Assembly (NCBI GenBank): GCA_003599595.1
Contig: QZIP01000011.1
Coordinates: 2,638-66,637, forward strand
Reading direction: 5' to 3'
From: Candidatus Parcubacteria bacterium
GTDB taxonomy: Bacteria; Patescibacteriota; Microgenomatia; Levybacterales; GWA1-39-11
DNA length: 64,000 nucleotides
The notes under the pieces were generated by a model. It ran no database searches. It was not told where the DNA came from and worked only from the letters and a program-made list of their open reading frames with translations. The translations under genes and the position numbers were made by a program. Of this stretch, positions 7,013 through 41,061 are shown in pieces (within the stretch, counting starts at the first letter, position 1; each line of letters opens with the position of its first letter).

Positions 7013-7354
7013 TATAATTAAATGCTTTTGTGATCAATAAAATTGATCAAACTTAATTACTTATAAATAAGCAATTTACATACCCTTAACATAGTTTTCT
7101 CCAATTATTTGTTCCACAAAAAAAACATATTTTTTATTAAAATTTGAAGCTAAATTTTAAACTGCTATATTTTGATATCATTGTTAATAGTTGACTGTAT
7201 AGGGCTAGTGTTTTACTATATATCCTGGCACTAGATATAGTTTAGAATTTCAAATCTTAGATCGCAAATGTCAAATCTTAAGAAATTTATAATAATTGTC
7301 GCGAAGTGACACCTTAGTTTTGAGATTTGAGCTTTGACATTTGAGATTTAATTT

Positions 7355-7804
7355 ATGTTCTGTCCTTATTGTACAAGCGCTGAAACAGAAGTAGTTGAAA
7401 CAAGAGTGAGTGAAGATGGTGGGAGTATTAGAAGAAGAAGAAATTGTGTTTCTTGTACAAAGCGCTTTACAACCTATGAAAGAATAGAAAACGTTACGTT
7501 GGTAGTAATTAAGAAGGATGGAAAAAGAGAACAATTTAACAGGGAAAAGCTCAAAAATGGAATTTTAAAGTCTTGCGAAAAAACAAGCGTAACACTGGAG
7601 CAGATAAACAATATTTTAGATGAAATAGGAAGAGAATTAAAAAATAAAGATTCTGTTGAAATAGAAAGTAAAAAAATAGGTCAAATAGTTGCAGCAAAGC
7701 TTAAAGAGATTGATAAAGTTGCCTATATTAGATTTGCAAGTGTTTTTGAAAGATTTTTAGACCTTGAAGACTTTGAAAAAGAACTGAAGAGGTTAATAAA
7801 ATAG
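7355..7804 (+). CDS. nrdR: Transcriptional repressor NrdR (zinc ribbon plus ATP-cone)
   Basis: MFCPYCTSAETEVVETR...NCVSCTKRFTTYERIE zinc ribbon followed by an ATP-cone (VIKKDGKREQFNREKL...). It lies immediately upstream of an RNR gene. Confidence 0.9.
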   Translation: MFCPYCTSAETEVVETRVSEDGGSIRRRRNCVSCTKRFTTYERIENVTLVVIKKDGKREQFNREKLKNGILKSCEKTSVTLEQINNILDEIGRELKNKDSVEIESKKIGQIVAAKLKEIDKVAYIRFASVFERFLDLEDFEKELKRLIK

Positions 7805-8234
7805 AAGTTACTTGATCTAATTGCTCTAATTAATCTAATTTCTAAATAAGCACCAAACCTTTAAAAATAAACAAATAAAACTAATATCAAATGACAAATA
7901 AATAAATGATAAAAATTCAAAAGTTATAAGTTATTAGTTTATTAAAATATTTGATAATTGATTTGTTTATTGGGTTATTTGTTTATTGGTAGTATTTTGT
8001 GGGGATTACAGGTTTGTTACAAAAAGACCCGTTGAAAATTAACAATAAGAGATTATAATAGAACAGTTCGGTTTTAAAAACATGCGTGTAGTCATTTAGC
8101 GTCAGGTTAAAATTATCAGTGTAATCAGGGCGCGTCAGAAATAACAACACAAAACAGAACAATACGAATAGCGCCATAAATCCGTGAAAATCAAAATCAT
8201 TAGGATGCAATTAACATTTTAAATATTTGAACTT

Positions 8235-10676: not shown

Positions 10677-10693
10677 GCATAAAATCCGATAAA

Positions 10694-10870
10694 AAATTTC
10701 TAATTTCAAACAGCCATTTTAAAGTTCAAAGTGCACCCGCCGCGCGAAGCGGGAAGTTCAAAGTTGCAGTTTAAAGTTTATAGTTGTAAATAATTTTGAA
10801 CTATTAACTGCAATTTTGCATTTTTAATCCGATCGAATCGGATTTTAATTTTGAACTTTGAATTGAAACA
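10694..10870. repeat. Composite intergenic repeat: GC hairpin CCCGCTTCGCGCGGCGGGTGCACTTTGAAC, TTTGAACTTT units and palindrome AATCCGATCGAATCGGATT
   Basis: The reverse complement of 10730-10790 matches 53028-53080 (TCCCGCTTCGCG.GGCG.GTGCACTTTGA). The palindrome AATCCGAT-N3-AATCGGATT recurs at 51076-51096 and, in related form, at 52786-52810. Confidence 0.55.
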
Positions 10871-10872
10871 TT

Positions 10873-11430
10873 ATGCCAATTTACACCAAAAAAGGAGATC
10901 AAGGGCAAACATCACTTCTAAATAAACAAAAGGTCTGGAAAAATTCCCAAAGGACAACTGCTTATGGAACTATCGATGAATTAAATAGTCTACTCGGTGT
11001 CGTAGTTGCCGAAATTGAAAACTCAGAATTCATGATTCATGATTCAGAATTCAAAAATCGGATAATTAGTATCCAAAATGACCTATTTCACATTGGTTCG
11101 TCTCTTGCCAATCCAGACAGTGATAAGGTTGACATCAATCTTTTAGAAAAAGTAAAAGATTTTGAAAAAAATATTGATGAAATGACAGCTCAAATGCCGC
11201 CCCTAAGTGCGTTTATTCTTCCCGGAGGGGGAAGAGTAGGATCTCTTTTTCAGTTTGCCCGCGCCACGGCTCGTCGTGCCGAAAGAGAAGCAGTTGCACT
11301 TTTTCAAAAAGAAAAAATCCAAGAAAATATTCTTGTTTATCTAAACCGCCTTTCAGACTTGCTCTTTACTTTATCCCGCTTTGCAAATTATAAGGAAAAT
11401 AAAAAAGAAGTCATTTGGAAAAAATCCTAG
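10873..11430 (+). CDS. pduO: PduO-type ATP:cob(I)alamin adenosyltransferase
   Basis: MPIYTKKGDQGQTSLLNKQKVWKNSQRTTAYGTIDELNSLLG matches the PduO/MMAB-family N-terminus. Contains a short low-complexity insert (SEFMIHDSEF). Confidence 0.85.
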   Translation: MPIYTKKGDQGQTSLLNKQKVWKNSQRTTAYGTIDELNSLLGVVVAEIENSEFMIHDSEFKNRIISIQNDLFHIGSSLANPDSDKVDINLLEKVKDFEKNIDEMTAQMPPLSAFILPGGGRVGSLFQFARATARRAEREAVALFQKEKIQENILVYLNRLSDLLFTLSRFANYKENKKEVIWKKS

Positions 11431-11479
11431 ACACCTCAACAACTTAAATACTTAGTCGTTGCTAGTAAAGCGATAAAGT

Positions 11480-11529
11480 CACCTCGGATGGTGGCCAAGC
11501 AACGACTTGGACTCCTCCGGGGTGGAGGT
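11480..11529. repeat. GC-rich hairpin repeat, copy A (CACCTCGGATGGTGGCC...GGACTCCTCCGGGGTGGAGG)
   Basis: Shares its ends and core with copies at 13150-13198, 15162-15202, 36505-36650 and 62521-62577. Confidence 0.6.
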
Positions 11530-11604
11530 ATTGAGAATAAACGTTGAGGAAATAAATAACGTAAATTAAGTCTTGAATAAATACTAATATACTAGTATAT
11601 TAGT

Positions 11605-11745
11605 AGCACTGTTGGTTTAACCACTGCCCTGTTGAATAACGGGGTGGGAAGGTTGAAGATTTTGGGAATTAGGTGTAAATCCTAAACTGTGCCGCAGCGG
11701 TAATTTCGATCATCTCGAATAAGTCCGAAGACCGACCAACATTGA
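11605..11745 (+). promoter_or_regulatory. Candidate cobalamin (AdoCbl) riboswitch aptamer with non-canonical element order
   Basis: B12-box-like CCACTGCC...GGGTGGGAAGG (11621-11652). Then GGGAAttaGGTGtAAaTCC...CCGCAGCGGTAA (11664-11702), matching the GGGAA-N3-GGTG-N-AA-N-TCC / CCCGC core consensus with exact spacing. Then GAAGACCGACC (11726-11736). An intrinsic terminator follows. Context: directly downstream of nrdJ and pduO. Confidence 0.35.
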
Positions 11746-11783
11746 TCCCGAGCAGGAAACTGAAAATATATTTGAAGTTTAAC

Positions 11784-11807
11784 CTTCTCGAGAGAGAAGG
11801 TTTTTTT
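11784..11807 (+). terminator. Rho-independent terminator, possible riboswitch expression platform
   Basis: Perfect hairpin CCTTCTC-GAGA-GAGAAGG followed by TTTTTTT. Confidence 0.7.
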
Positions 11808-11955
11808 ATGGTCTAAAAAAAGCGGCGCCTAAATTTTGCTTGTCCCTCATAGCTTTAGCGAAGTGGGAAATTTTGAACTTTTTAAGGGTGTCTCCTTGAG
11901 GAGTATATTCAATTATGCTCAATGCGACGAAAGGTGACTCCCTTATAGAAATAAT

Positions 11956-13110
11956 ATGTCATTTAAAACAGAACAGTCTCATTATCAGACAATAGATGTT
12001 GCAAACAGAAATAGAGAAGTGGTTGGTTCAAGAGCCTGCAATCTAGAATATCTTTCCCATGTTACAGATGAGGAAATTAGAGACGATATTGTTTCTTATC
12101 TTGGGGAATATAGATTTAAACTCCAAAAATTTGATTACAAATTGGCTTTGGTAAAAGATAGTGATGGGAAAGTAGATCTTTGTGATCCACACCGTCTGGA
12201 GTCTATGTCTATTAAGTCAAAAAGAGCTATTGAGGAAAGAAAAGCAGCCGGTTTACCAACTCATAGGGAAGAAGCAGAAGAAACTGGAATAAGTCACTTA
12301 AAAGATCAGCTTAGATTTGCAAGAATAGGAGATAGGATATTTTGGGCAAGTCCTCCAGGGCCCAAAAGTGAAGGTTATGGAAACTATGGATTTTTATATT
12401 CAGGAAAAGTTTCGCAAATAAACTTTAACACTCAGGGAAAAGCTCAATATTTGGACATAGATATGACAGCAATAAGAGTAGAAAATCCTAGCATAGCAGA
12501 ATTTAACCAAGCAATGAGTGCTCTTACGGGAATAAAGTTTGATAACAGAGTTGCAGATGAATTTTTAGAACAGCCTGTGGTAACTAGAAGGTCAGTAAAA
12601 GATAGAGAAGTGGATAGTGTTATTTGTCAAAATTTTGACTTATCAGCTGATCAAAGAGAAAAATTTGATCAGGTTATTGCAGGTCTCGAGTCACAATTGT
12701 TAATAGATGACCTTATAAAAATTATCAGAACAGGATCAAGAGAAGAAAGAATTAAGGCCTTTTACACTCTTGAAAATTATGCCTTAAAGCTTAAGTCAGA
12801 AACAGCTCTCAATGAAAAAGTATTATACTTGAATGATTATAAAAAGAGAAAGTCTTTACAGGAGTTAGCAGTTTACTACAGCTATAGGCCTCCCATAGCT
12901 TTTGGCAGTTGCGGCTCAACAGACTCTAGCAATAGCTTAATTGGCTTAGGTTCTCCAAATGTCTTAAGTACTTTAGTCTTTGGCCCATCAAGCGAAAGAA
13001 AGATTCTTGCTTGTAAATGTCCTTCTTGTGAAAGACAAGTAAACGCTGTAATTGAGAACGGAAAAATAACCTGTCCCAAATGCAGCGCCTCAGCAGACTA
13101 CAATTGCTAA
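11956..13110 (+). CDS. Hypothetical protein with C-terminal double zinc ribbon (CKCPSC...CPKC)
   Basis: 384 aa ORF with no recognisable catalytic domain. Sits downstream of the riboswitch-like element and terminator. Confidence 0.55.
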   Translation: MSFKTEQSHYQTIDVANRNREVVGSRACNLEYLSHVTDEEIRDDIVSYLGEYRFKLQKFDYKLALVKDSDGKVDLCDPHRLESMSIKSKRAIEERKAAGLPTHREEAEETGISHLKDQLRFARIGDRIFWASPPGPKSEGYGNYGFLYSGKVSQINFNTQGKAQYLDIDMTAIRVENPSIAEFNQAMSALTGIKFDNRVADEFLEQPVVTRRSVKDREVDSVICQNFDLSADQREKFDQVIAGLESQLLIDDLIKIIRTGSREERIKAFYTLENYALKLKSETALNEKVLYLNDYKKRKSLQELAVYYSYRPPIAFGSCGSTDSSNSLIGLGSPNVLSTLVFGPSSERKILACKCPSCERQVNAVIENGKITCPKCSASADYNC

Positions 13111-13967: not shown

Positions 13968-14583
13968 ATGCAAATATATTTGAATAGAAATAGTACATAA
14001 AATGTAGCACTTCGCTAAAGCTTCGCGCTACACACTTCTTACCCATTTTAAAAGCGTGGTAACCTGTTAATTGTGGCCTTCCACGCGTAGCTCTTTACAA
14101 AGTAAAGAGCGAAGTGTGGAGATGGCCGAGAATGACCCGGCGTCCAAAAACAGTACCTATAAAATATCTACAAGCGTAGTCAATCTTTAATTGTCGTTTT
14201 AGGCTTAACTGATTGACAAGGGTGTCCTAAAACCAAGGTTAAAAGATAATATAAGGTAACCAGCCTCATATCCTTTTCTCAACTTTGTTTATGCCCGTAC
14301 TGTCCCGTTGAGAAGGGTCAATACAGACAGAGCTTAGTTTACGTAAGCAAGATTGCGTTCGTAAGCTAGGTCACTAGAACTTGGTCTAGCATTTATGTTT
14401 TGAGACTGTTTTATCCGCCTGTTAAGGCGAGATCTCGCTTTCGCGGACGGCTGTGTCTCAAAGCCGGCTTGCAATTTTAAAAGTGCTATCTCTGTCGATG
14501 CAATGCATCCCCAAGACCAATATTATACCAAATTTTACCCTCAAAAGCAAAAAATTCAAGCTATAATTAGCTCAAACCACTCA

Positions 14584-26923: not shown

Positions 26924-29900
26924 CTATCTACCAAAAAATCTTCCTAATCCTCTGCGTTTTGGTGGTTCTGCAACCATTGATCCCCTATATCCCTCCTGGG
27001 GTCTTGCTGCACCAGGTAAAGGAGGTCCTTCAACAAAAGGCATTTCTTCTGGAGGAACCATTTTTATTTCTCTAGGAATACTGGCCTGGACATTGTATGT
27101 TCTCTCCATAGGATGTTTTATTGGAGCGCCTACTTCAGCTAGATCTCTGTCAGGAGTCAGATCTGGTTTGCCCTCATCTTCAACATATTGAGTTGCCAAT
27201 GAGTGCACTCTTAAAGTTCCAGGTTCGCCATTATATCCTGCAAGCTCCGATGCTTTCAGGATATTTAAATTTTGATCTGCTATCAAAGCAGAAGATATAG
27301 TATTTATGCCTACAATTTCACCGCGGCTATTAATAAGTTCTTGTGGAAGATCTATATTGCCTTGCTCATTTGCTTCTACCATAATCTGTCTTCCATCTTT
27401 TAAGTCAACAACATAACTTAATTTATCCAGAGAAATATTTCCACCATTTATATCTTTCATTCGGTCCAATAATTCATCATTTAAATAGGGCACACCTTCT
27501 AGATGAGACGGAATTGGTTCTCCACCAAGTGTTCCACCATAACTTATACGTATTGTCCACTTACCGTCTGAGCTCATATGTTTATCAAAATAAAGAGTTA
27601 ATTCATTTCCTGCAGGGGCTTCGCTCCCATTATGATTCACCCAGCTTTTCATAACATCTGTAGTGTCTGTAATTTGTCTATCTAAAAGCACACTATGGTC
27701 CTGAGAGAGCAAATGATCAACCGTGCTTACTCCTTCTGTATGTGTTTGTGAAATGTAAAATCCTGCTTCTGCAAGGTCTTGTTTTAGGTTGGTAAATTCC
27801 GGACTTTGTGGGTTAATTCCTGTCTTGGACAAATCAAAAGAAAACATCCCATCATCCTTAATCTTTCCCTCAAGTTGCAGACCAGATTTAGAATCCACAA
27901 TCCCTACTTGGGAAACATCTGCATTGACAGTAACTGTTATGTTTTCCACATTGTAAGTTGCAGTTTCATGTCTTGCTATGGTTCCTTGAATTTTTTCTGC
28001 TAAAGAAGGAAGAGTTGTAGTTTTTTCTACTATTTCACCCACTTTAAAACCTTGGGAAGAGAGCTTTTCACTGGTTACAGCTACACTTGCGGAATCACCG
28101 CTTCGCAGATCAAAATTTCCTTTGGCATCAACTTGGCCTTCAACAATCCCACCATTAACACCTGTTATTTTTACTCCTGTACCGTCAATTATCATATTTA
28201 GATCTTGTAATTTTACCTCGTGAGCTCCTGGGGTATTAACTGCGGTTAAAACTTGACTTGCAGCAGGGTTTTCTGCAACAGTCCAATTAGTTGCAGACCG
28301 TATTTCTTCTGGTAAGTCTTCAAAATGGGGAGTTTCTCCATTTAAGCTAACTACTTTTATAGAACCGTCAGACTGAATTTGAATTTGGCGGCCATCAATA
28401 TCAATATTTCCTTGCCCATCATAAAATGTACCAAGATGACTTGGGGCATCTACAGACAGTATTAAGCCACTTTCAAATCTTAAGCTTCCTCCCGTATCAA
28501 AAATTTTCTGAAGATGCTCTTGTGTCATAAGCTCTGCACCTCTTACTCTATCAACCAAAAATCCAACCATCCTCTCTCCAGGAGTTTGCCCTTCTATTAC
28601 TCCCGCATGTTTTAATCCTTGAGCAACTACTTCACTTGATGCAAGTCCTACAATTGCAGCAGTTGCCCCACCTATTGCTCCCTGTCTATTTATCCAGGCG
28701 TCTTTTGCCTTATTTTGCAACCTATTATGGTCTTCCAATCTCTCCCGCCAAACTCTTCTCATTTCTCTTATGTTTTTATCATTTCTTGAAATCACAATAC
28801 CTTCTCTTTGAAGAATTTCCCTGATCCTGCTCATTGCCCTTGTAAGTTCTATTGTTTCTTTTGATCCTGATCTAATACTTTCAAAACTAACCAAGCCTCT
28901 AGCTCTATCTCCTTGAAACGCTGGGAAATTAAGTCTTACATCTATTTCTGCCCATCTCTCAAGCAAAGAGTTTACATTTCTTTCAACCTCTGCCAATTGT
29001 TCTTTTGTCTCTCCTCCCGTAGCTTTAATTTTTGCACTTAAAACATCTTCCATATTTTTTCTCCTCTCTCCGCTCACAAGAGACTTTCCTCCCCCAGAAA
29101 CAAGCTCCCTAGCGGTAGCCATACTTGGAATAAAATCTGTTGCATCTCTTCTTCTTTTTAATTCTTTTCCTTCTTCTCCTTCTGCTCTTAATTCTTGAGC
29201 TTTAACACCCGCAGCGCTGTGTTCCAGTTCTTTATTTGCTTCATGTGCTGCTCTTTCAGCACTAGACCTTCCCCTCAAGCCGCCCATAGTTGTTGACAGG
29301 GCCAAAGAAAGCTGTAAGGGATCTACTCCAAATTCCACTCCTGCCGTTCTCAATCCTTGAAGTCCAAGGTATGTACCTAATCCCGTTGCAAGAGGGGCGC
29401 CCGCAAAACCTCCTCTTCTCTGTTCAAGGGCAGAAAAGAATCTATCAATCAATCCTATGGGCATCTGAGTTTGCTCGGCAAGTCTTGCCCTAAAAACATT
29501 AACCGGAATTCTAAGTTTACCTGATTCAAGCCTAGGTAAATCTCCATTATGCAAAACCATCCAGGCATTGGTTAAAATATTTGTGGCAAAAAAGTTTGAA
29601 GTTTTTCCAAAATGCTCTTTATCAGCAAAAAATTCTTGTATTTGCGGATCTGAAATATGACCTTGCATATAATCTCCCAATTGGGCTTGAATAAATGCCC
29701 TAATCTCACCTTCATTTTCAGAAGTAATACCGCTTTCATTGTATTTTCTAATAATACGCAAAAGTATCTCTTCATTTACATATCGTGTTAATTCAGTATC
29801 TGCTGGAGTAAGTCCCTTTTCTCCGGCAAGCACCCCTTCTTTCCCCATCATCATTCTCTCAATCACGTGTTTCCCTGATTCTTCCATTGCTTCTGTTTCA

Positions 29901-30985
29901 CCTTTGATTTCTTGACTCTCTTCATCTAAATTTTCCCTTGCTATAATATTGACTTTTCTTAATTCACCAAAATATTTCAATTCATTCACTCTTCTCAAAA
30001 ATCCCTGTACATTTCTTCTAAGCATTTTTGGCCAATTAGCGGGATTCAATGTTGTTCCTACCCGGGCAGCAATTTCAACCGCCAATTTTTCTGGTATATC
30101 TGGATAAATTTCTTTGACTCTGTGTTCCATCTCTTTTTGCTTGGCATAGGCCTCCGCACGCATTCCTGCCTCTTCATCCATAGAACCTATAGTCACTCCG
30201 TAGCGCTTCTCAGCAAAAATTGGTTCAGGATTAGGCTCAGTAATAGTTGACGGTTCAGGAGTTGAAACAGTTTCTGCTGGCTTTTTCATCCCGGGAACAA
30301 CATTGACTGCTTCGCCCACTTGGGGTGGCACCAATACATAATTAGGGCTATATTTAAAAGCTTTTATCCTGCCTTCTGCTGGGTCAAAACTTGTAATTCC
30401 AAGCGTTATGTTGTCACTTATTTTTAACAAAAATGCCTTGTCTTCAAGATCTTGTTGGGTAAAGGGGCCAAGCTGTTCTTTGTCTCCAACGGTTATATAA
30501 AGTCTATCTCCTCTCTGTTGTAAAACCCCTGCCCCAAAAGCTTCTGGATCCATAATGTCTGGTAGGATAGTTACCTTCTCAGGGTCCTTTGGGTCGGCTT
30601 TAAAAGCAAGAGTCTCTGCTTGTTTTCCAAGTCTTAATTTCAAAGGAACAGTCACATGATCTGACCCGTTTAGTTCTTCCCAATTTAAGCTCTCGCCCTT
30701 GCCAGTCCTTCTTTTTGGCTCCGGAGGAATTTTATCAGCACCAACAAACATGTCAGGACTTGTTTTGGAGGGGCGGCTTTCAAGTAATGTCATTAGCCTT
30801 ACCTCGTCTCCCTTATCATGTCCTGCTTGATTTATAGGATCTGATTCTAATTTGCGGAAATCTCCCTCAGAAGTTAAACTTGTATCAGGACCTTTTGAAA
30901 TAATTCTTGAAGACTTAAAGGCGTCTTGTCTTTCAGTCATGCCTTCAGCTTCCGCTTCACTTGTTTCAATTGCTTCATCTACCAT
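26924..30985 (-). CDS. Giant hypothetical protein (1353 aa), charged N-terminus, no signal peptide or TM
   Basis: Uninterrupted 4.06 kb ORF in the same operon as the small acidic protein and the VirB4-family ATPase. Confidence 0.65.
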   Translation of the reverse strand: MVDEAIETSEAEAEGMTERQDAFKSSRIISKGPDTSLTSEGDFRKLESDPINQAGHDKGDEVRLMTLLESRPSKTSPDMFVGADKIPPEPKRRTGKGESLNWEELNGSDHVTVPLKLRLGKQAETLAFKADPKDPEKVTILPDIMDPEAFGAGVLQQRGDRLYITVGDKEQLGPFTQQDLEDKAFLLKISDNITLGITSFDPAEGRIKAFKYSPNYVLVPPQVGEAVNVVPGMKKPAETVSTPEPSTITEPNPEPIFAEKRYGVTIGSMDEEAGMRAEAYAKQKEMEHRVKEIYPDIPEKLAVEIAARVGTTLNPANWPKMLRRNVQGFLRRVNELKYFGELRKVNIIARENLDEESQEIKGETEAMEESGKHVIERMMMGKEGVLAGEKGLTPADTELTRYVNEEILLRIIRKYNESGITSENEGEIRAFIQAQLGDYMQGHISDPQIQEFFADKEHFGKTSNFFATNILTNAWMVLHNGDLPRLESGKLRIPVNVFRARLAEQTQMPIGLIDRFFSALEQRRGGFAGAPLATGLGTYLGLQGLRTAGVEFGVDPLQLSLALSTTMGGLRGRSSAERAAHEANKELEHSAAGVKAQELRAEGEEGKELKRRRDATDFIPSMATARELVSGGGKSLVSGERRKNMEDVLSAKIKATGGETKEQLAEVERNVNSLLERWAEIDVRLNFPAFQGDRARGLVSFESIRSGSKETIELTRAMSRIREILQREGIVISRNDKNIREMRRVWRERLEDHNRLQNKAKDAWINRQGAIGGATAAIVGLASSEVVAQGLKHAGVIEGQTPGERMVGFLVDRVRGAELMTQEHLQKIFDTGGSLRFESGLILSVDAPSHLGTFYDGQGNIDIDGRQIQIQSDGSIKVVSLNGETPHFEDLPEEIRSATNWTVAENPAASQVLTAVNTPGAHEVKLQDLNMIIDGTGVKITGVNGGIVEGQVDAKGNFDLRSGDSASVAVTSEKLSSQGFKVGEIVEKTTTLPSLAEKIQGTIARHETATYNVENITVTVNADVSQVGIVDSKSGLQLEGKIKDDGMFSFDLSKTGINPQSPEFTNLKQDLAEAGFYISQTHTEGVSTVDHLLSQDHSVLLDRQITDTTDVMKSWVNHNGSEAPAGNELTLYFDKHMSSDGKWTIRISYGGTLGGEPIPSHLEGVPYLNDELLDRMKDINGGNISLDKLSYVVDLKDGRQIMVEANEQGNIDLPQELINSRGEIVGINTISSALIADQNLNILKASELAGYNGEPGTLRVHSLATQYVEDEGKPDLTPDRDLAEVGAPIKHPMERTYNVQASIPREIKMVPPEEMPFVEGPPLPGAARPQEGYRGSMVAEPPKRRGLGRFFGR

Positions 30986-31619: not shown

Positions 31620-32925
31620 ATCCAGAAAATATACAGATTTTATTTGTGTATGTCTTCTCACAGTTAGCCTTAAGATAACACGGATGAAACTGATCCGTGA
31701 AATCTTATTTTGTAGGACAGATGTAAGGTCCGCATTACCGTAAAGCATTTAGGCCGCGGGAAGAGAAGGAGTAAATAAATTTGACATTTGAAATTTAAAA
31801 TTTGAAATTGGAAATTTATTTCCTCTCTCCCCGTTGTCTTTTTGCTTACGGTCAATGATGATCTGATTCAGTCCCGCAGGCTGGATGAGGGTGAGAGCAA
31901 AGAGAGCGGAGACGGTGATGCTGATGAGAGGGAGGAAAAATGAAAAGGAAGTCGTTACGCGGCAGTAGACAAAGAAGAGAAAGTAAGCCAACAGTCCAAG
32001 TGAAAGATCCTAACAGGATGGGACATTTGCAAACTGAAGGGCGCACATTTGTTGTCTCTCGGGTGTCTCCAGCCTCCGGGCTGTCCGAACCCTTCAGGGC
32101 ATCACCAGCGTGGGTAATACCGGCTCGTTGATATAGTACCAATAGAGATAAAGGGAGCCCACCCCCTCCCTTGATCCACTCTCGTAAAATCTGGAAGGAG
32201 TTAAGGAGTTGCTCAAAGGTGATATTGTGATAGGACTACAGAGGCTTTTCGAGGGTGTAAAAATAACTCCCGGACAAAGCCAGACTCTATACATGGATCC
32301 ATTCGGAGCATTCATTGATCCTCCTTCAGATCCCACACTTAATCCGCTCAGAGGATTCCAAGTCACCCTTGCTCCTGGTCCCAATCTTCCTCTTGAAGCA
32401 GTAGTGGGCATTCTGCTCGGCCTATGGTCGACGGGGAAGGAGTCAGAAGGTATGCAACCGGTCTGCGTCGATAAAGCAGAGGTAGGAAAGGACGGGCGAG
32501 CTCTTCTTGCGGCTTCAGGATCCACTGGGATCTATTTCATTTATCCCGCGTAATCGTTCAGAAGGAGGATGTGATGACAATCGGCACAAAGATCGGACCA
32601 GGAAGACGAGCTCGGACAGGACCACAATCCCGTCAAGGTCTTCAGATGGAAACAACTGGCGGCCCAGACAAGGTTGACCCCAAAGAATGGCAAAAAGGTT
32701 GCTGGGCTTGCCCGGAGTATCCTTGCAACTTCACCGTGCACAAGTGTCCCCATAGAGGTTGCGTGTTCGGATAGTTCGACAATTTGGAATCTGGATTTCC
32801 ATCATCAAGGCAAGAGGAGCGCTTGGGTTTGTGCGGAGGTCCTATTTGACCTCCAACCTTACTCAAGCGCTTTTCTTTTGGCAAAAAAGTTGCCCCAAAG
32901 CCTAATTTAGGTTAAAATTAAGGGT
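31620..32925. other. GC-rich ORF-free region of about 1.3 kb; candidate large structured RNA or foreign-DNA remnant
   Basis: About 50% GC against about 35% in flanks. Only short overlapping ORFs on both strands. Internal hairpins such as GGAGGTCCTATTTGACCTCC. Lies directly 5' of tRNA-Ser(UGA). Confidence 0.3.
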
Positions 32926-32931
32926 GAAAAT

Positions 32932-33016
32932 GGAGGAATTGAGCAATGGTGGCTCACCAGTCTTGAAAACTGGGGTCCGAAAGGACATGTGGGTTCGAGC
33001 CCCACTTCCTCCGCCA
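32932..33016 (+). tRNA. tRNA-Ser with anticodon UGA
   Basis: GGAGGAATTGAGCAATGGTGGCTCACCAGTCTTGAAAACTGGGGTCCGAAAGGACATGTGGGTTCGAGCCCCACTTCCTCCGCCA. Acceptor GGAGGAA/TTCCTCC, anticodon loop CTTGAAA, long variable arm, and CCA is encoded. Confidence 0.85.
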
Positions 33017-33267: not shown

Positions 33268-33795
33268 ATGATTATCGTTGTTGGTTCCACCAATCCTGCA
33301 AAATTAAATTCTGTTAGAAAGATCTTTAAAAAATATTTTAGAAATGTGATTGTTAAGGGTGTAAAAGTTGAATCAGGAGTTGCCGAACAACCTTTAAGTG
33401 AAGAAGAAATGTTTGAGGGCGCTCTGTCTCGGGCAAAAAACGCTTTAGAAAAAAATAAAATTGCAGATTTTGGAATTGGAATAGAAGGAGGAGTGCATAG
33501 GTTTGGTTATGGCCTGATGGAAAGAGCCCTAGTGGTTATTGTTGATAGAAAGGGAAATATTGGCATCGGTTCATCTGGTGGAGTGGTCTTGCCTGAAAAG
33601 GTATCCAAAAGAATTGAAAAAGGTGAAAATCTCTCTGTGGTTATAGATGATCTTTTTGGGACAAAAGATATAGGTAAAAGCATTGGCATGTTTGGTTTGT
33701 TTACAAAAGAAGTGGTGACCAGGACAAAGGCCTATGAACACGGTGTTGCCTTTGCTCTCTCAAGATTCCTACACCAAAACTTGTTTGAAAAATAA
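33268..33795 (+). CDS. Inosine/xanthosine triphosphatase (YjjX/DUF84 family)
   Basis: MIIVVGSTNPAKLNSVRKIF...VESGVAEQPLSEEEMFEGALSRAKNA...DFGIGIEGGV resembles YjjX-family NTP phosphatases. Confidence 0.65.
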   Translation: MIIVVGSTNPAKLNSVRKIFKKYFRNVIVKGVKVESGVAEQPLSEEEMFEGALSRAKNALEKNKIADFGIGIEGGVHRFGYGLMERALVVIVDRKGNIGIGSSGGVVLPEKVSKRIEKGENLSVVIDDLFGTKDIGKSIGMFGLFTKEVVTRTKAYEHGVAFALSRFLHQNLFEK

Positions 33796-33799
33796 AATT

Positions 33800-34354
33800 A
33801 TGGAGAAAAGATTTGTTTCGCGGGCTGGAGAAAAGCTTCAATTTGCCCTGGAAAAGTTTGAAATCAGCGTTAAAGACAAAATCTGTGCAGATCTTGGCTC
33901 AAGCACAGGTGGATTTGTTGAATGTTTGCTTCAACACGGCGCCCAAAAAGTTTATGCAGTAGAAGTGGGCTATGGAACACTCGCCTGGAAACTTAGGCAA
34001 GACCCTAGAGTTATAGTTCTAGAAAAAACAAATGCTTTACATGTTGAACTGCCGGAACAAGTTGACTTCGTATCTATTGATGTGGGCTGGACTCCTCAAA
34101 AACTCATCATTCGCAAAGCCTTAGAGCTCGTTAAACAAGGAGGAGATATTATCTCACTACTAAAACCTCACTATGAAGCAGATAGAAGGTGGCTCAGACG
34201 CGGAAAGCTCTTAGAAGAATATCTGGATAAAACAGTTGAAAAGGTAAAATCAGAACTCTTAAGCCTTGAAATTACCATAAATGAAATAATCGAATCACCA
34301 ATTATTGGCACCAAAGGTGGCAACAAAGAATACTTAATCTGGATTAAAAAATAA
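33800..34354 (+). CDS. tlyA: TlyA-like (FtsJ-fold) RNA 2'-O-methyltransferase
   Basis: MEKRFVSRAGEKLQFALEKF...CADLGSSTGGFVECLLQHGAQKVYAVEVGYGTLAWKLRQDPRV...DFVSIDVGW. The start was trimmed to the ATG at 33800; the longer ORF from 33734 overlaps the preceding gene. Confidence 0.75.
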   Translation: MEKRFVSRAGEKLQFALEKFEISVKDKICADLGSSTGGFVECLLQHGAQKVYAVEVGYGTLAWKLRQDPRVIVLEKTNALHVELPEQVDFVSIDVGWTPQKLIIRKALELVKQGGDIISLLKPHYEADRRWLRRGKLLEEYLDKTVEKVKSELLSLEITINEIIESPIIGTKGGNKEYLIWIKK

Positions 34355-34356
34355 TT

Positions 34357-34650
34357 ATGATGAGTTTATTGTTTGGATTAATATTTGGAATAATTGTTAC
34401 TTGGATTTTTGAAACTATAATGGTGAACAATAGAAAATTAAGAAAAAATTTTTGGGAAAATAATTTATTAATTTTCGGTTATCACTTTCATCACAGTTTT
34501 TTTAGGATTAGTGCTTATATTAATCGGTTTATTAAAAATTAATTTATTATTGATAGGGTTAGCTTTGGGAATAATAATAGTCCACACTATAACTGACAGA
34601 TTTGTCTTTGTAGAAAAAAATAAAATAATAACTTGCAAATAGATTAGTTT
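34357..34650 (+). CDS. Small membrane protein, apparently frameshifted at a T7 run
   Basis: MMSLLFGLIFGIIVTWIF... continues as ...GLVLILIGLLKINLLLIGLALGIIIVHTI in the +1 frame after the homopolymer at about 34495. Confidence 0.25.
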
Positions 34651-34775: not shown

Positions 34776-35603
34776 ATGCAAGAGATTTTTGTTACTAAAA
34801 GTTCGGGGGAAAAAGAGCCGTTTTCAGAAGAAAAAGTTCTTCTTGCTATGGGGAAAGTTGGGGTGCCGGATTCTCTTAGGCCACAGGTCTTGTCTCACGT
34901 AAAGCAAGGGCTTCACCCAAACATAAAAACCTCTGATATTTTTAATCACATTACAGAGTATTTAAGAGCGCAAGACATTAGGGCCTCAACCAGATTTAAT
35001 CTTAAAAAAGCTATTTTTGATCTTGGTCCTACAGGTTTTCCTTTTGAAAAATATGTCGCTAGAATCTTTGAAAGCTTAGGTTATAAAACGCAGGTAGATA
35101 CTATCCTGGAAGGGGAGTGTGTCAGTCATGAGGTAGACCTAATAATTGAAAAAGAAAATAATAAAGAAATTGCTGAGGTAAAATTTCATAATCATCACGG
35201 TAGCAAGACCGATGTTCAGGTAGCACTTTATTCCTATGCCCGTTTTCTTGATCTCTCAAAAATACACAAAATAAGCGGTCTTTGGATTGTGACAAATACA
35301 AAGCTCTCTCAGGATGCAATAACTTATGCAAAATGTAAGAATGTAAAAGTTATTGCCTGGAATTATCCTCAAAACAATAATCTTCAGCAATTAATAGAAA
35401 AACCTTGTCTTTATCCAATTACTATTTTAAGCTCTTTATCTTCCAAGGAAAAACAAGAATTGCTTGACGCTGGTATTGTTCTTTGCTCAGATTTGTTATC
35501 AAACCCATTGGTAAGACAAATCATTCCGGATCATAATCATTGGCAAAATGTCCAGCAGGAAGCCCAGGTTGTCTGGCCCCTGTCATCCAACAGGGCCATA
35601 TGA
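34776..35603 (+). CDS. ATP-cone domain fused to a PD-(D/E)xK (Mrr-like) nuclease domain
   Basis: N-terminal ATP-cone-like segment (TKSSGEKEPFSEEKVLLAMGKVGVPDSL...). Then GFPFEKYVARIFESLGY...HEVDLIIEKENNKEIAEVKF with a D...E.K catalytic pattern. Confidence 0.5.
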   Translation: MQEIFVTKSSGEKEPFSEEKVLLAMGKVGVPDSLRPQVLSHVKQGLHPNIKTSDIFNHITEYLRAQDIRASTRFNLKKAIFDLGPTGFPFEKYVARIFESLGYKTQVDTILEGECVSHEVDLIIEKENNKEIAEVKFHNHHGSKTDVQVALYSYARFLDLSKIHKISGLWIVTNTKLSQDAITYAKCKNVKVIAWNYPQNNNLQQLIEKPCLYPITILSSLSSKEKQELLDAGIVLCSDLLSNPLVRQIIPDHNHWQNVQQEAQVVWPLSSNRAI

Positions 35604-35617
35604 AATGACGTGGCAAA

Positions 35618-36487
35618 CTAAACCACAAGTAAAATTGTCCCCAGTATCATAATGCTTGCTCCAACTAATCTTTCTTTAATATTCGTTTCTTTAAAAATTA
35701 TTGCCCCCAAAAGAATTGTAAAAATTGGAGAAATTTTAAATACAGCCGTGGCATATCCTACATTTGTTAAAGAAAAAGCTGTAAAAGACAGCCATCTCCC
35801 CAAAACTGCAAAAAACGCAATAATTAAAAACCAGCCAAATTCATCTCTTACAACTCTATTTTCCCTCCTTAAGATTGGAAGCGCAAAAGGGATAATTAAA
35901 AGTGTAATAATTAAATCGCCAAAGAAAGCAACAAAAAGAGGCATAGAAGGATTGATAAGTGACATCGATTTTTTTTGAAAAATTGGCGTGATTGCCCATA
36001 TAAGATTTGCCAGTAAATATAGTTGAACTCCTCTATGTGAGAGGATATTTTTAAAAGGTGCAAAAATCCCCTTTTTAACCTCGCTTATATCCAAAAGATA
36101 TAATCCCAAAACTATTACCAATACTCCCAGTCCTCTTATGGGTGTAGGAATTTCTCCCAATGCAAAAGCGGCAATACCCATTGTAAATACAGGATTAAAG
36201 GCAGAAAATGGCGTAACTAAAGAAATAGGGGAGGTTTTAATTGACTTTAATACTGCTAAGAAAGCAGCAATATCAAGCACCGCAGAAATTGTCATAAACA
36301 AATAAAAAGTAGGTTCAATTTGAGGAACCCCTCCCAAAAACAAAACAATAACTGCAACTATTGGTACAACAAGAAGATTTACTAAAAGAAAAAAGGAGAG
36401 AGGACTAATGTTTTTTATTGCCTTTTTGGTAACAATTCCGGAAACTGATGTTCCAAGGGCAAAAAAGAGAGATAACCAAAACCACAT
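35618..36487 (-). CDS. EamA/DMT-family transporter
   Basis: 289 aa with 10 predicted TM helices and a duplicated 5-TM architecture typical of the DMT superfamily. Confidence 0.75.
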   Translation of the reverse strand: MWFWLSLFFALGTSVSGIVTKKAIKNISPLSFFLLVNLLVVPIVAVIVLFLGGVPQIEPTFYLFMTISAVLDIAAFLAVLKSIKTSPISLVTPFSAFNPVFTMGIAAFALGEIPTPIRGLGVLVIVLGLYLLDISEVKKGIFAPFKNILSHRGVQLYLLANLIWAITPIFQKKSMSLINPSMPLFVAFFGDLIITLLIIPFALPILRRENRVVRDEFGWFLIIAFFAVLGRWLSFTAFSLTNVGYATAVFKISPIFTILLGAIIFKETNIKERLVGASIMILGTILLVV

Positions 36488-36690: not shown

Positions 36691-37215
36691 ATGACTATTT
36701 TTATTTTTAACATTTTTTTGATTGTAGCCGCAATCTTTTTATTAATTCTTCTTTCTATGATTTGGCCCCCAGATAGTCCTTGGTCTCCCTGGTGGAGGAC
36801 AAATAAAAATATTGCCCGTGCCGCCTGCCGCCTCGCCAAAATAAAAGAAGGGGACACAGTTTATGAATTGGGGTGTGGTGATGCAAGTTTTCTTTTAACA
36901 GCCAACAAAGAATACAAAGCCAAAACAGTAGGGATAGAAATCGATCCGGTAAGATTTTTTATCGCCAAATTAAGGTTTGCTTTAAACAAATGTAATCAAT
37001 CAAAATTATTAAAAAAAGATTTCTTTGAGGTTAGTCTTTCTGATGCTGATGTAGTTTTTGTTTACCTTGTCCCAAAAGCCTTAGAAAAATTAATACCAAA
37101 ATTTAAAAAAGAATTAAAACCTAAAGCAAAAATCGTGAGCTTAAGATATAAAATAAATTTACCGCTTCTTGAAGAAGACAAAAAATCAAAACTATATCTT
37201 TACAAAATCTCTTAA
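36691..37215 (+). CDS. Class I SAM-dependent methyltransferase
   Basis: N-terminal TM segment and motif I VYELGCGDASFLL. Confidence 0.7.
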   Translation: MTIFIFNIFLIVAAIFLLILLSMIWPPDSPWSPWWRTNKNIARAACRLAKIKEGDTVYELGCGDASFLLTANKEYKAKTVGIEIDPVRFFIAKLRFALNKCNQSKLLKKDFFEVSLSDADVVFVYLVPKALEKLIPKFKKELKPKAKIVSLRYKINLPLLEEDKKSKLYLYKIS

Positions 37216-39957: not shown

Positions 39958-41061
39958 TTAACGGCCCCTTAGTTTATTCAGTTTCAAAAGAGCCCAGCGT
40001 GTTTTATCTGCTCCTTTATAAAAATTATAAAGAACCGGGTTGATTATTAAATCATAACTTCCAATAAATTCAGTTAATTCTCCTCCATATCCCTGTTTAA
40101 ATCTATGAAATCCATACCAGGGATCACGGGTGTCAGGCTCTGGTCCCATTGCTCCCCACATGTCAAATTTTTTAAGTCCTAAGCGTTTTCCAAGTTTTAT
40201 TGCCTCCCAAGCTATTAAATTTGAGGCCATAACCTCTTTAAATTTACTGCTTGATGCGCCATAAGGGTAGTAAAGCGTATCTTGAAAAGTAAAAAGCACC
40301 CAGGAAACAAGAGTATGTATACTACCATTGTCTGCTTTATGTTTTGCATTCAATAAATGATAGGCTAGCCTATTTTTGTCTATTTTTTCAATTTCTTCTT
40401 TTGCCCCTTTAGTCTTAGGAGATGAATTTGGGTTAGGGTTCAAACAAATCGTCTCCCAAAGCAGTTTATGATAGTCTGGGGTGTGGGCATAAAACCTTTG
40501 TCTTGTTGTTGTTTCTTGGGTCAAGTTCAAATAGTTATTAAAAGCCTCTTTTGAATTGTCTTTTTCTATAAATACACCTTTTTTCTGAGCAAGCCGTACA
40601 TTGTAGCGGGTTTTAGATTGCATTTGGGCTAAAAGTTCTTCCTCACTTCTTGTTAAATCCAGCACAAAAGTATATTTAGTAAACAACGGATGAAAAGCAA
40701 CTCTCAATCTTTCATCAACTTTGAACTTTGAACTTTGAACTTTGAACTTAATTATGTTCGGTTCCAACTGTATAAAAATACACTTTTCTTCCTTGCCAAT
40801 TCTTTGGATCTCATCAAGAATTTCTTTTTTGGGAAAATTTCCTTTTGGAAGATATCCCACAAAATAAGGTAAATAAGGGATTTTATGTATTGTTAAAGTA
40901 AAACCATCTATTATTTTGTTGTTTTCAACCAAGGCTCGTCTTATAACCTTAATCCCAGTTACTTTTCTAAATTCTCCCCACTCAAAACTCTGCAAAGGAT
41001 GTGTAGCAACTTTGTTGTAATCTTTTCTTTTTTTATTATCCACATCTATAAATTTTTTCAT
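39958..41061 (-). CDS. FemAB-family peptidoglycan bridge aminoacyltransferase, carrying an in-frame tandem-repeat insert
   Basis: HPLQSFEWGEFRK near the N-terminus resembles the FemX/MurM HFLQSWEWGE motif. CDS positions 40717-40750 contain a TTTGAACTT x5 array encoding FKVQSSKFKV. Confidence 0.6.
   Translation of the reverse strand: MKKFIDVDNKKRKDYNKVATHPLQSFEWGEFRKVTGIKVIRRALVENNKIIDGFTLTIHKIPYLPYFVGYLPKGNFPKKEILDEIQRIGKEEKCIFIQLEPNIIKFKVQSSKFKVDERLRVAFHPLFTKYTFVLDLTRSEEELLAQMQSKTRYNVRLAQKKGVFIEKDNSKEAFNNYLNLTQETTTRQRFYAHTPDYHKLLWETICLNPNPNSSPKTKGAKEEIEKIDKNRLAYHLLNAKHKADNGSIHTLVSWVLFTFQDTLYYPYGASSSKFKEVMASNLIAWEAIKLGKRLGLKKFDMWGAMGPEPDTRDPWYGFHRFKQGYGGELTEFIGSYDLIINPVLYNFYKGADKTRWALLKLNKLRGR

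Follow-up and report, generated by a model that had tools for sequence, protein, structure and literature searches.

What does a protein do that joins an ATP-cone, a nucleotide-sensing module, to a nuclease? The question is raised by one gene in a 64,000-nucleotide stretch of a Candidatus Parcubacteria genome (contig QZIP01000011.1; hereafter, the window). The gene, which we call T, lies at 34776-35603, exactly where a sequence-only reading of the window had placed an open reading frame (ORF), and its product is identical to database record P0001, which comes from a Candidatus Parcubacteria metagenome-assembled genome (MAG) and bears the name 'ATPase'. The same reading had suggested a nucleotide-pool-responsive nuclease, for example with a function in defence or abortive infection. 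Of this proposal, the nucleotide-responsive nuclease remains the best reading, supported by the domains, the nucleotide pocket and the conserved catalytic residues, while the defence role found no support. We predict with high confidence that the protein is a nucleotide-sensing, active nuclease; that it is allosterically controlled and feeds nucleotide catabolism or salvage is, as one combined statement, a proposal that we see as evenly poised. The parts of the gene are as follows.

34776..35603, plus strand: complete gene T, ATG start, 275 amino acids plus stop; ATP-cone, PD-(D/E)xK nuclease and AF1548-like C-terminal domain
34776..35018, plus strand: predicted ATP-cone (residues 1-81), a beta-hairpin lid and four helices (profile, hhalign, Foldseek)
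35022..35048, plus strand: invariant linker LGPTGFPFE (residues 83-91), ending in E91
35034..35360, plus strand: Mrr-type PD-(D/E)xK nuclease core (residues 87-195; Pfam, phmmer, Foldseek)
35127..35192, plus strand: catalytic segment H118-E119-V-D121 ... E134-V-K136-F-H138-N139, which includes the peptide quoted in the sequence-only reading, HEVDLIIEKENNKEIAEVKF (residues 118-137)
35361..35579, plus strand: AF1548-like C-terminal helical domain (residues 196-268), helix-hairpin-helix (HhH)-like (Pfam, profile, Foldseek)

An ATP-cone joined to a complete nuclease active site

Scanned as a single sequence, the protein matched the Pfam ATP-cone family (PF03477) at residues 5-67 with 20.3 bits, under the cutoff of 25.8, and because this match was sub-threshold, we ran three further tests of the domain. 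A profile of the N-terminal 82 residues, built from 21 relatives, found the ATP-cones of E. coli NrdR as its top PDB matches (E=1.4e-5), with coverage of NrdR residues 51-127, which is the whole cone. Aligned by hhalign to the NrdR encoded in the window itself, the same profile gave 92% probability (E=6.8e-7) at 26% identity, an identity so low that recent duplication of the window's NrdR cone was ruled out. Finally, Foldseek placed the AlphaFold model of the protein (41-sequence alignment; pLDDT 87.9, pTM 0.82) on NrdR cones (7p37/9gex) over 80-83 columns with a root-mean-square deviation of 2.0-2.2 Å, and also matched it to the cones of ribonucleotide reductase (RNR). The modelled cone comprises strands 5-7 and 13-15 and helices 18-27, 35-44, 52-66 and 68-81. 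All three tests agree with the N-terminal domain assigned in the sequence-only reading, and PF03477 matches are precomputed for many relatives.

In E. coli NrdR, the adenine is covered by Lys53, Glu59 and Lys65, the hydrophobic floor of the pocket is made up of Val51, Phe61, Leu66 and Ile108, and the carbonyl of Pro60 reads N6 of adenine (bioRxiv 10.1101/2025.03.28.645925). These residues (V51, K53, E59, P60, F61, K65, L66 and I108) align to V6, K8, E14, P15, F16, K20, V21 and I55 of the window protein, whose predicted pocket also includes G11 and T52. Among 385 full-length relatives, K8 is conserved in 99%, G11 in 98%, K20 in 97% and T52 in 93%. As judged from alignment and model, the window protein carries a bona fide ATP-cone in which most of the NrdR adenine-pocket residues are kept.

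The stretch that joins the cone to the nuclease, LGPTGFPFE, is the best-conserved part of the whole protein: G84, G87, F90 and E91 are found in 100% of the 385 sequences and P85 in 99%. In the model, the last cone helix (68-81) leads through a loop into the first nuclease helix (90-100), which carries E91. We infer that this linker is the allosteric coupling element between the sensor and the active site.

The Mrr-like nuclease domain named in the sequence-only reading was recovered both by sequence and by fold. Pfam Mrr_cat (PF04471) matched residues 87-193 with 30.4 bits (E=4.5e-7, cutoff 21), phmmer matched residues 93-242 to PDB entry 1Y88, the structural-genomics protein AF1548 of Archaeoglobus fulgidus (E=2e-33), and 1Y88 was also the top Foldseek match of the whole model (E=7.8e-15), with the nuclease domains of MspJI, Can2 and Card1 matched as well. 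E91, E119, D121, E134, K136 and D159 are each present in 100% of the 385 relatives. D38, E51 and K53 of AF1548 have been predicted to be catalytic (PMC1821046), and they are the counterparts of D121, E134 and K136 in our alignment. By sequence, then, the PD-(D/E)xK active site (E91, E119, D121 and E134-x-K136) is complete and invariant, and cleavage is predicted.

The C-terminal domain was matched by Pfam AF1548-like_C (PF22357) at residues 213-243 with 27.1 bits (cutoff 23.9), and its profile had 1Y88 as the sole PDB sequence match (E=1.2e-18). Modelled alone (pLDDT 82), it gave weak (E>0.02) yet consistent Foldseek matches to the N-terminal domain of RAD51/RadA (2.4-2.6 Å over 55-64 columns), BAF, the alpha-subunit C-terminal domain of RNA polymerase, Y-family polymerases and Hel308, all of which contain HhH-type DNA-binding modules. 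The modelled fold is thus suggestive of an HhH-like, putative nucleic-acid-binding module.

In a very large family, the fusion is the rule

A first homologue search returned 1,513 matches, nearly all of 270-305 amino acids, and since more than 1,500 homologues share a uniform length, a chance ORF is excluded. Among 50%-identity cluster representatives, 428 clusters matched at E<=1e-30, the top 150 of them all aligning from about residue 1-6 to about residue 245, and a search with the Pontibacter member gave at least 7,522 clusters at E<=1e-20. The family is present in at least 589 species-level genomes; among the genomes listed, carriers are mostly Patescibacteria within the candidate phyla radiation (CPR), from many classes, together with Flavobacteriaceae, an Acidobacteria MAG and archaeal MAGs. 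The three-domain fusion is therefore not a rare one, but the standard architecture of a very large family. Members go by the public names 'ATP cone domain-containing protein', 'restriction endonuclease', 'ATPase', 'Holliday junction resolvase' and 'RecB family endonuclease', and NCBIfam has no model for the window protein. The same residues are invariant in cassette-linked, archaeal and CPR proteins, and we therefore treat these proteins as one family with one biochemistry.

The family itself is catalogued and its domains are of known kinds; for the combination of ATP-cone and nuclease, no paper that we found describes a function. Literature searches on AF1548, on the family name and on pairings of the ATP-cone with a nuclease, restriction endonuclease or Mrr brought up no account of such a fusion, and the searchable literature yielded no enzymology of any family member. 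In five loci (L028, L031, L034, L052 and L064), tblastn gave a family match where a simple ORF caller recovered no intact family-clustering gene; these may be frameshifts, pseudogenes or cases of an alternative genetic code. The beta-CASP gene of L064 is intact.

The window protein is, by sequence, a full-length member of the family of AF1548, and this comparison bears on the published structure as well. The closest relatives of AF1548 (P0271-P0276) are 242-252 amino acids long and up to 80-89% identical to it. One of them, P0273 (80% identical), starts with a full cone, MLRVRKRDGRLEEFSKAKI, while in others, the start was assigned to a Met codon within the cone. As the crystallised 1Y88 chain has no cone and its close relatives have one, the AF1548 annotation is probably truncated at its N terminus, and the 2004 crystal structure would probably represent a truncated annotation from which the sensor domain is missing.

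Relatives outside the CPR often head nucleotide-catabolism cassettes

In relatives from several phyla, T shows recurrent operonic linkage to genes for an RNase-type beta-CASP protein, an AMP-phosphorylase-type protein, phosphoribosyl pyrophosphate (PRPP) synthase, the RuBisCO pathway, PPK2 and universal stress proteins (Usp). In the gene orders below, MBL denotes the MBL-fold hydrolase, TP the thymidine phosphorylase family protein and PRS the PRPP synthase. The two plasmid copies, which come from different phyla, head the same tight co-directional cassette. On a Criblamydia sequanensis plasmid, T is followed by an MBL-fold hydrolase, a 'thymidine phosphorylase family' protein of 505 amino acids and a ribose-phosphate pyrophosphokinase, flanked upstream by genes for a P-type ATPase, phosphoketolase and glucan phosphorylase (glgP) and downstream by acetate kinase; a Pontibacter actiniarum plasmid carries the same four genes (T, MBL, TP, PRS), and the partners are 54-60% identical between the two. 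A Cyclobacterium-like marine contig extends the series to T, beta-CASP MBL, TP (506 amino acids), PRS, a DUF3108-like protein, PPK2 and a P-type ATPase. Shorter versions occur in an Acidobacteria MAG (L044: T, TP of 506 amino acids, PRS, P-type ATPase) and in a Saprospiraceae contig (T, then beta-CASP). In seven Flavobacteriaceae genomes, the order is a response-regulator/cNMP-binding/Crp regulator, Hsp20, three Usp genes, T and beta-CASP.

Two archaeal-labelled loci connect T to the RuBisCO pathway itself. In locus L083, T immediately adjoins genes for a 507-residue TP, RuBisCO and an IF-2B-family protein, and all three partners exceed their NCBIfam equivalog cutoffs, as AMP phosphorylase (687 bits, cutoff 535), type III RuBisCO (539 bits, cutoff 497) and ribose-1,5-bisphosphate (R15P) isomerase (436 bits, cutoff 314). 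Locus L055, labelled Nitrososphaera, has the RuBisCO large subunit, a TP of 512 amino acids that passes as AMP phosphorylase (595 bits) and then T. TPs from the bacterial cassettes score as matches to the sister 'ARCH_P_rylase/PRK04350' models. The best PDB matches of the TP partners were 4GA5/4GA6 (E=1e-128 and 1e-105), with the N-terminal extension included, as against 1e-49 or weaker for ordinary pyrimidine-nucleoside phosphorylases; we take 4GA4-4GA6, labelled 'putative thymidine phosphorylase' in the PDB, to be the T. kodakarensis AMP phosphorylase. The beta-CASP partner best matched 'Ribonuclease TTHA0252' (3e-79), followed by CPSF-type RNases, and the PRS partner best matched the PRPP synthases 1U9Y and 4TWB, which are presumably archaeal.

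We counted partners in 80 metagenome loci of the non-CPR branch, taking as denominators those loci with enough flanking sequence:

beta-CASP directly downstream of T on the same strand: 22 of 58 loci
beta-CASP within 3 kb, with a P-type ATPase between: 3 more of the 58 loci
AMP-phosphorylase-type TP downstream: 12 of 47 loci
full cassette of T, MBL, TP and PRS: 10 of 38 loci
Usp within 1 kb upstream: 16 of 57 loci

The cassette association is frequent, not universal; those operon partners that are conserved belong to nucleotide catabolism and stress.

Two reports from other organisms touch on these partners. In B. diazoefficiens, the contiguous genes bll3115 (MBL), bll3116 (PRS) and bll3117 (TP family) are induced by microoxia in both proteome and transcriptome, with protein log2 fold changes of 2.9, 4.4 and 2.1 and transcript fold changes of 15.4, 7.7 and 5.1, respectively (PMC6515984 Table 2). 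AMP phosphorylase, R15P isomerase and RuBisCO form an archaeal route of nucleotide degradation, by which, according to one proposal, CPR bacteria could obtain ribose from nucleotides or RNA (PMC5113843).

Two further features of these loci were observed. A protein of about 225 amino acids with a weak DUF3108-like match recurs as a fifth cassette member after PRS, often followed by PPK2 and a P-type ATPase (L087, 10659-11348; L089, 6924-7601; 10 of the loci L091-L170); in L089, it stands directly after T, with the other partners absent. In Flavobacteriaceae and similar metagenome contigs (L020, L043, L064, L073, L075, L080, L148, L149 and L155), T lies in an island with the look of stress or dormancy, which comprises a regulator, Hsp20, three to five Usp genes, T, beta-CASP, small unknowns, SRAP, a HipA-like kinase and DUF3037.

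Copies in the CPR occupy housekeeping contexts

CPR copies of T sit in stable, lineage-specific housekeeping contexts. The gene directly follows mnmA in about 30 of 76 loci, at the end of a block of sigma70_r4/HARE-HTH, an unknown, MltG and MnmA; after T come either DUF7282, a Cas4-like PDDEXK_1 protein, an MGMT-type DNA-binding protein and an HD protein, or MgtC and AlaRS. Since only one CPR lineage, with a conserved block, shows this adjacency, and since the genomes of the CPR are compact, we did not use it as functional evidence. A Levybacteria-like group has the order methyltransferase, Peptidase_C39-like, T, Ni-SOD, S26 peptidase, methyltransferase, FemAB, of which the methyltransferase and FemAB genes are common to the window, and a third group has DUF2079, T and then a convergent Y-family polymerase. 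Across CPR classes, the T proteins are 40-60% identical, and synteny is stable.

With these contexts in hand, one may ask whether the protein cuts nucleic acid at all, or whether it is a non-catalytic transcription regulator in the manner of NrdR, with a nuclease fold and HhH domain that only bind DNA and so control a downstream cassette. T is the first gene of the cassette wherever a cassette exists, an order that mirrors NrdR and the RNR-like ORF behind it in the window, and its cone is most similar to NrdR cones. However, the presence of E91, E119, D121, E134 and K136 in every one of the 385 proteins, bacterial and archaeal, is unexpected for a fold that only binds, and CPR copies have no consistent downstream target operon. 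Nor were NrdR-box-like sites found within 10 kb of T, their total count being no higher than chance, and we rejected NrdR-box regulation of T. We regard a regulator of this kind as very improbable.

A role in DNA repair or recombination, in which a nuclease of the Holliday-junction-resolvase, Mrr or RecB-like kind would act on damaged or branched DNA, and not on bulk nucleic acid, in a manner tied to dATP or ATP, is another rival reading. 'Holliday junction resolvase' and 'RecB family endonuclease' are among the names given to members, the modelled C-terminal domain is similar to HhH modules that occur in RAD51/RadA, Hel308 and Y-family polymerases, and potential repair genes lie near T: the convergent Y-family polymerase (cluster 28), the Cas4-like PDDEXK_1 and MGMT-type DNA-binding proteins of the Paceibacteria-type block, SRAP in the Flavobacteriaceae island and RmuC in L086. 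Yet none of these neighbours is conserved beyond a single lineage, whereas beta-CASP, TP and PRS recur across phyla; the examined loci showed no RecA, Ruv or SOS context; and the source names are automatic, fold-level labels. We consider this role unlikely.

Several taxonomic labels in this material look unreliable. Many contigs labelled 'uncultured Gammaproteobacteria' or 'Saccharibacteria' are syntenic with CPR Levybacteria or Paceibacteria (label-suspect loci: L001-L009, L012, L018, L021, L023, L050 and L059), and the window, despite its Parcubacteria label, has synteny with the Levybacteria-like group. The 'Pacearchaeota' contig L023 has the gene order of Levybacteria contigs (DUF2079, T, Y-family polymerase), and for this reason we did not count it as an occurrence in DPANN.

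No defence context at the examined loci

The defence or abortive-infection function put forward in the sequence-only reading found no support in the distribution of the family or in its neighbours. No restriction-modification or defence gene neighbours T in the approximately 85 loci examined, nor in the 80 metagenome loci, which were scanned for partners only, and no cas or CBASS gene was found at any examined locus. No member was found among 50,697 phage genomes or 2.9 million IMG/VR viral contigs, and just 2 of 72,556 plasmids have a copy, both times inside the metabolic cassettes described above. PADLOC gave only weak nuclease-domain matches for the window protein (ZorD, E=8.7e-6; CARF-PDDEXK, E=9e-4) and, among its neighbours, only weak nucleotidyltransferase matches and partial, generic methyltransferase-fold matches to 'mad2' of the MADS system. 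The latter (33734-34354, E=7e-10; 36691-37215, E=4e-17) cover about 130 of 492 profile positions, which correspond to the S-adenosylmethionine-binding fold, and we judged them generic and not indicative of a MADS defence system. A restriction-modification pairing with these two nearby methyltransferases was likewise rejected, one being FtsJ-type and the other, read by eye, devoid of a DPPY/NPPY motif. In the window protein, Pfam found no reader domain for modified DNA (Mrr_N, SRA or similar).

A solitary defence nuclease, akin to type IV restriction or abortive infection and licensed by infection-induced shifts in ATP or deoxynucleoside triphosphates, would need no partner genes, and several observations fit it: type IV restriction enzymes typically have the Mrr_cat fold, PADLOC does point weakly to the nuclease domains of ZorD and CARF-PDDEXK, Foldseek likens the model to MspJI and to the sensor-plus-nuclease effectors Can2, Card1 and Cdn1, and the family is patchily distributed across Archaea, CPR, Bacteroidota and Chlamydiota, which implies horizontal transfer. 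Set against this are the want of defence or restriction-modification genes in any examined neighbourhood, the nature of the flanking methyltransferases (an FtsJ-type RNA methyltransferase and a small enzyme without DPPY/NPPY), the lack of a DNA-modification reader and the absence or near absence of the family from phages, viral contigs and plasmids. The uniform length of the protein, its 40-60% identity across CPR classes and its stable synteny are also unlike fast-evolving defence genes, and the partners that do recur are metabolic. On balance, a solitary defence nuclease is improbable, and 'restriction endonuclease' is probably a mis-annotation of the role of the family.

A proposed model: a gated nuclease of nucleic-acid turnover

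We propose that the ATP-cone would bind adenine nucleotides (ATP, dATP and possibly ADP or AMP) and that binding would shift the conformation or oligomeric state of the protein, as in RNR and NrdR. The change would pass through the LGPTGFPFE linker to the first catalytic helix and switch Mg2+-dependent cleavage on or off, while the HhH-like domain would hold the nucleic acid without sequence specificity. One may guess at the sign of regulation: plentiful ATP or dATP would probably inhibit the enzyme, and a fall of the pool would release it. Once opened by the nuclease, nucleic acid would be converted exonucleolytically to nucleoside monophosphates and then phosphorolysed, along a pathway that would run from the endonuclease to the beta-CASP RNase, to the AMP-phosphorylase-type enzyme and on to either R15P isomerase and RuBisCO or PRPP synthase. 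T would then encode the nuclease that gates entry into nucleic-acid turnover, and it would serve when energy or oxygen is limiting, not against phage.

The physiological part of this model draws on the conserved gene neighbourhoods of relatives, and we hold a catabolic or salvage role to be plausible, at slightly under an even chance. The window copy has no cassette partners, and its role is therefore extrapolated from relatives that are 36-43% identical and have the same invariant residues. Judged from its sequence, the CPR copy probably has the same biochemistry; by extrapolation, it would serve nucleic-acid recycling in a salvage-dependent organism.

More tentatively, the whole family might be the missing, allosterically gated way into a conserved module through which nucleic acid becomes central carbon. 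The cone would read the adenylate or deoxyadenylate pool and license the nuclease, which, together with a TTHA0252-type beta-CASP RNase, would supply nucleoside monophosphates. Products of the AMP-phosphorylase-type enzyme would then enter R15P isomerase and RuBisCO in archaea, and possibly in the CPR, and a branch in Bacteroidota and Chlamydiota would lead to PRPP synthase, PPK2 and phosphoketolase. In the pathway literature that we found, no nuclease is described as part of the AMP phosphorylase/RuBisCO pathway.

Several points weigh against the model of a gated nuclease in nucleotide catabolism. For nucleotide binding and cleavage, and likewise for the substrate and the direction of regulation, we offer predictions. 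E14, the counterpart of a lid residue in NrdR, is kept in just 62% of the 385 relatives. Pointers to the substrate conflict, as the RNase and ribonucleotide partners suggest RNA and the Mrr fold and HhH-like domain suggest DNA. The cassette link is limited to non-CPR members: AMP phosphorylase, RuBisCO and beta-CASP genes are found near T in 0 of about 65 CPR loci, and they are not found in the 64-kb window either. Even outside the CPR, the cassette is absent at loci L085, L086, L089 and L090, and as many cassette loci are probably from Bacteroidota, part of the co-occurrence may reflect shared ancestry. The bacterial cassette TPs score 486-506 bits, just under the AMP-phosphorylase equivalog cutoff of 535. 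Finally, the B. diazoefficiens evidence covers the MBL-PRS-TP trio alone and is not shown to include T.

Surroundings of T in the window

In the genome of the window, T stands alone among housekeeping genes. Pfam scans bore out the flanks named in the sequence-only reading, a TlyA-like methyltransferase and a DMT transporter, as an FtsJ-type methyltransferase upstream and a convergent EamA/DMT transporter downstream, and, as that reading also had it, no RNR gene adjoins T. The neighbours are these:

33268-33795: NTPase_I-T family protein (Pfam scan)
33734-34354: FtsJ-type methyltransferase, upstream of T (Pfam scan)
34357-34542: hydrophobic ORF of 61 amino acids, between the FtsJ-type methyltransferase and T
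35618-36487: EamA transporter, convergent to T (Pfam scan)
36691-37215: small methyltransferase downstream of T (Pfam scan)
39958-41061: protein that clusters with FemAB-family genes (locus comparison)

The small methyltransferase has, by eye, a hydrophobic N-terminal segment and no DPPY/NPPY motif; beyond it lie two proteins without a Pfam match and then a Pol-beta-type nucleotidyltransferase. After the stop of the 61-residue ORF, further hydrophobic-looking coding sequence follows, LIGLALGIIIVHTITDRF, and 34357-34640 may be a small membrane-protein gene broken by a stop codon. Upstream, between a DUF5663 gene and a tRNA (32932-33013), 1 kb of DNA (31860-32860) has a GC content of about 50%, against about 35% for the genome. 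In this segment, we found no ORF longer than 145 codons in any frame, no Rfam family and no similarity to the fetched loci or phages; a structured RNA found no support, as folding was no better than that of shuffled sequence (z = -1.0 and +0.2). The segment may be decayed foreign DNA adjoining the tRNA.

The NrdR that the sequence-only reading had noted elsewhere in the window was located at 7355-7804, in a run of genes around a B12 system (7355-13110); the last two entries of the list lie outside this run:

7355-7804: NrdR (translation by eye, cone supported by hhalign)
8235-10676: RNR-like ORF after NrdR, with the look of class II (translation by eye)
10873-11430: likely PduO-type adenosyltransferase (by eye)
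11596-11754: cobalamin riboswitch
11956-13110: protein of 384 amino acids, without a Pfam match, with a C-terminal CxxC...CxxC motif
14114-14512, minus strand: tmRNA gene (94.5 bits)
26924-30985, minus strand: protein of 1,353 amino acids, without a Pfam match

As the protein downstream of the cobalamin riboswitch has no Pfam match, what the riboswitch seems to regulate is a gene of unknown function. Upstream of nrdR, a palindrome at 7228-7243 weakly resembles an NrdR box.

Comparison with known systems

To our knowledge, ATP-cones have so far been understood only as switches of RNR and of its repressor, NrdR. If the reading proposed here is true, ATP-cone allostery extends to nucleic-acid degradation, and T encodes the first nuclease known to be under ATP-cone control. 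One comparison is with NrdR, with which the window protein shares the predicted cone fold and most adenine-pocket residues and, by analogy, would be expected to share the logic by which nucleotide binding sets oligomeric state and output. The two differ in that output, which is a PD-(D/E)xK nuclease with an HhH-like domain in one case and a zinc-ribbon DNA-binding domain in the other, and in the position of the cone, N-terminal in the window protein and C-terminal in NrdR; no zinc ribbon is among the five Pfam families listed for the window protein, whose sequence opens with the cone. Tyr131 of NrdR, which belongs to the outer site and to ATP/dATP discrimination, corresponds to N75-L76-K77, and discrimination may therefore differ. 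Class I and class III RNRs resemble the window protein in that a regulatory cone precedes the catalytic domain, and Foldseek matched the cones of E. coli NrdA and of P. aeruginosa and Aquifex R1; the motif IKTSDI of the window protein is identical to residues 53-58 of E. coli NrdA. Here, the regulated enzyme is a nuclease, and both an RNR domain and an RNR neighbour are absent.

AF1548 (1Y88) belongs to the same family and has the same catalytic D/E/K triad and C-terminal domain, and it differs in that the crystallised chain has no ATP-cone. No function is known to have been assigned to it beyond 'predicted restriction endonuclease'. The family is very large and conserved in the CPR, and its half-solved structure has been without a function for two decades. 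Mrr and type IV enzymes share the Mrr_cat family, the motif layout and a TNT...DA...YA segment after the ExK motif, whereas the window protein has no Mrr_N or other modified-DNA reader, no defence context and other flanking domains. Can2, Card1 and Cdn1 likewise place an N-terminal small-molecule sensor before a PD-(D/E)xK nuclease (whole-model Foldseek E of about 6e-4), but their sensor is a CARF domain and not an ATP-cone, their ligand is a cyclic oligoadenylate and not, as presumed here, a housekeeping nucleotide, and no CRISPR or CBASS neighbourhood accompanies T. The likeness to CARF-nuclease effectors is one of analogy only, not of family membership. Since Card1 and Can2 act on RNA as well as DNA, an RNA substrate would have a precedent.

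The last comparison is with the pathway of AMP phosphorylase, R15P isomerase and RuBisCO, none of which is encoded in the 64-kb window. In L083 and L055, relatives of T adjoin genes of this pathway, and in other relatives, T stands beside the sister phosphorylase and PRPP synthase. CPR bacteria are generally described as having limited biosynthetic capacity (PMC5113843). The AMP phosphorylase, RuBisCO and R15P isomerase neighbourhoods, together with the microoxia-induced Bradyrhizobium cassette, make for a concrete hypothesis, and culturable carriers of the family are at hand in Pontibacter, Salegentibacter, Salinimicrobium and Sporocytophaga. If true, it would explain the source of nucleotides for the RuBisCO pathway of CPR and DPANN organisms and reveal how cells time the consumption of nucleic acids, whether their own or scavenged.

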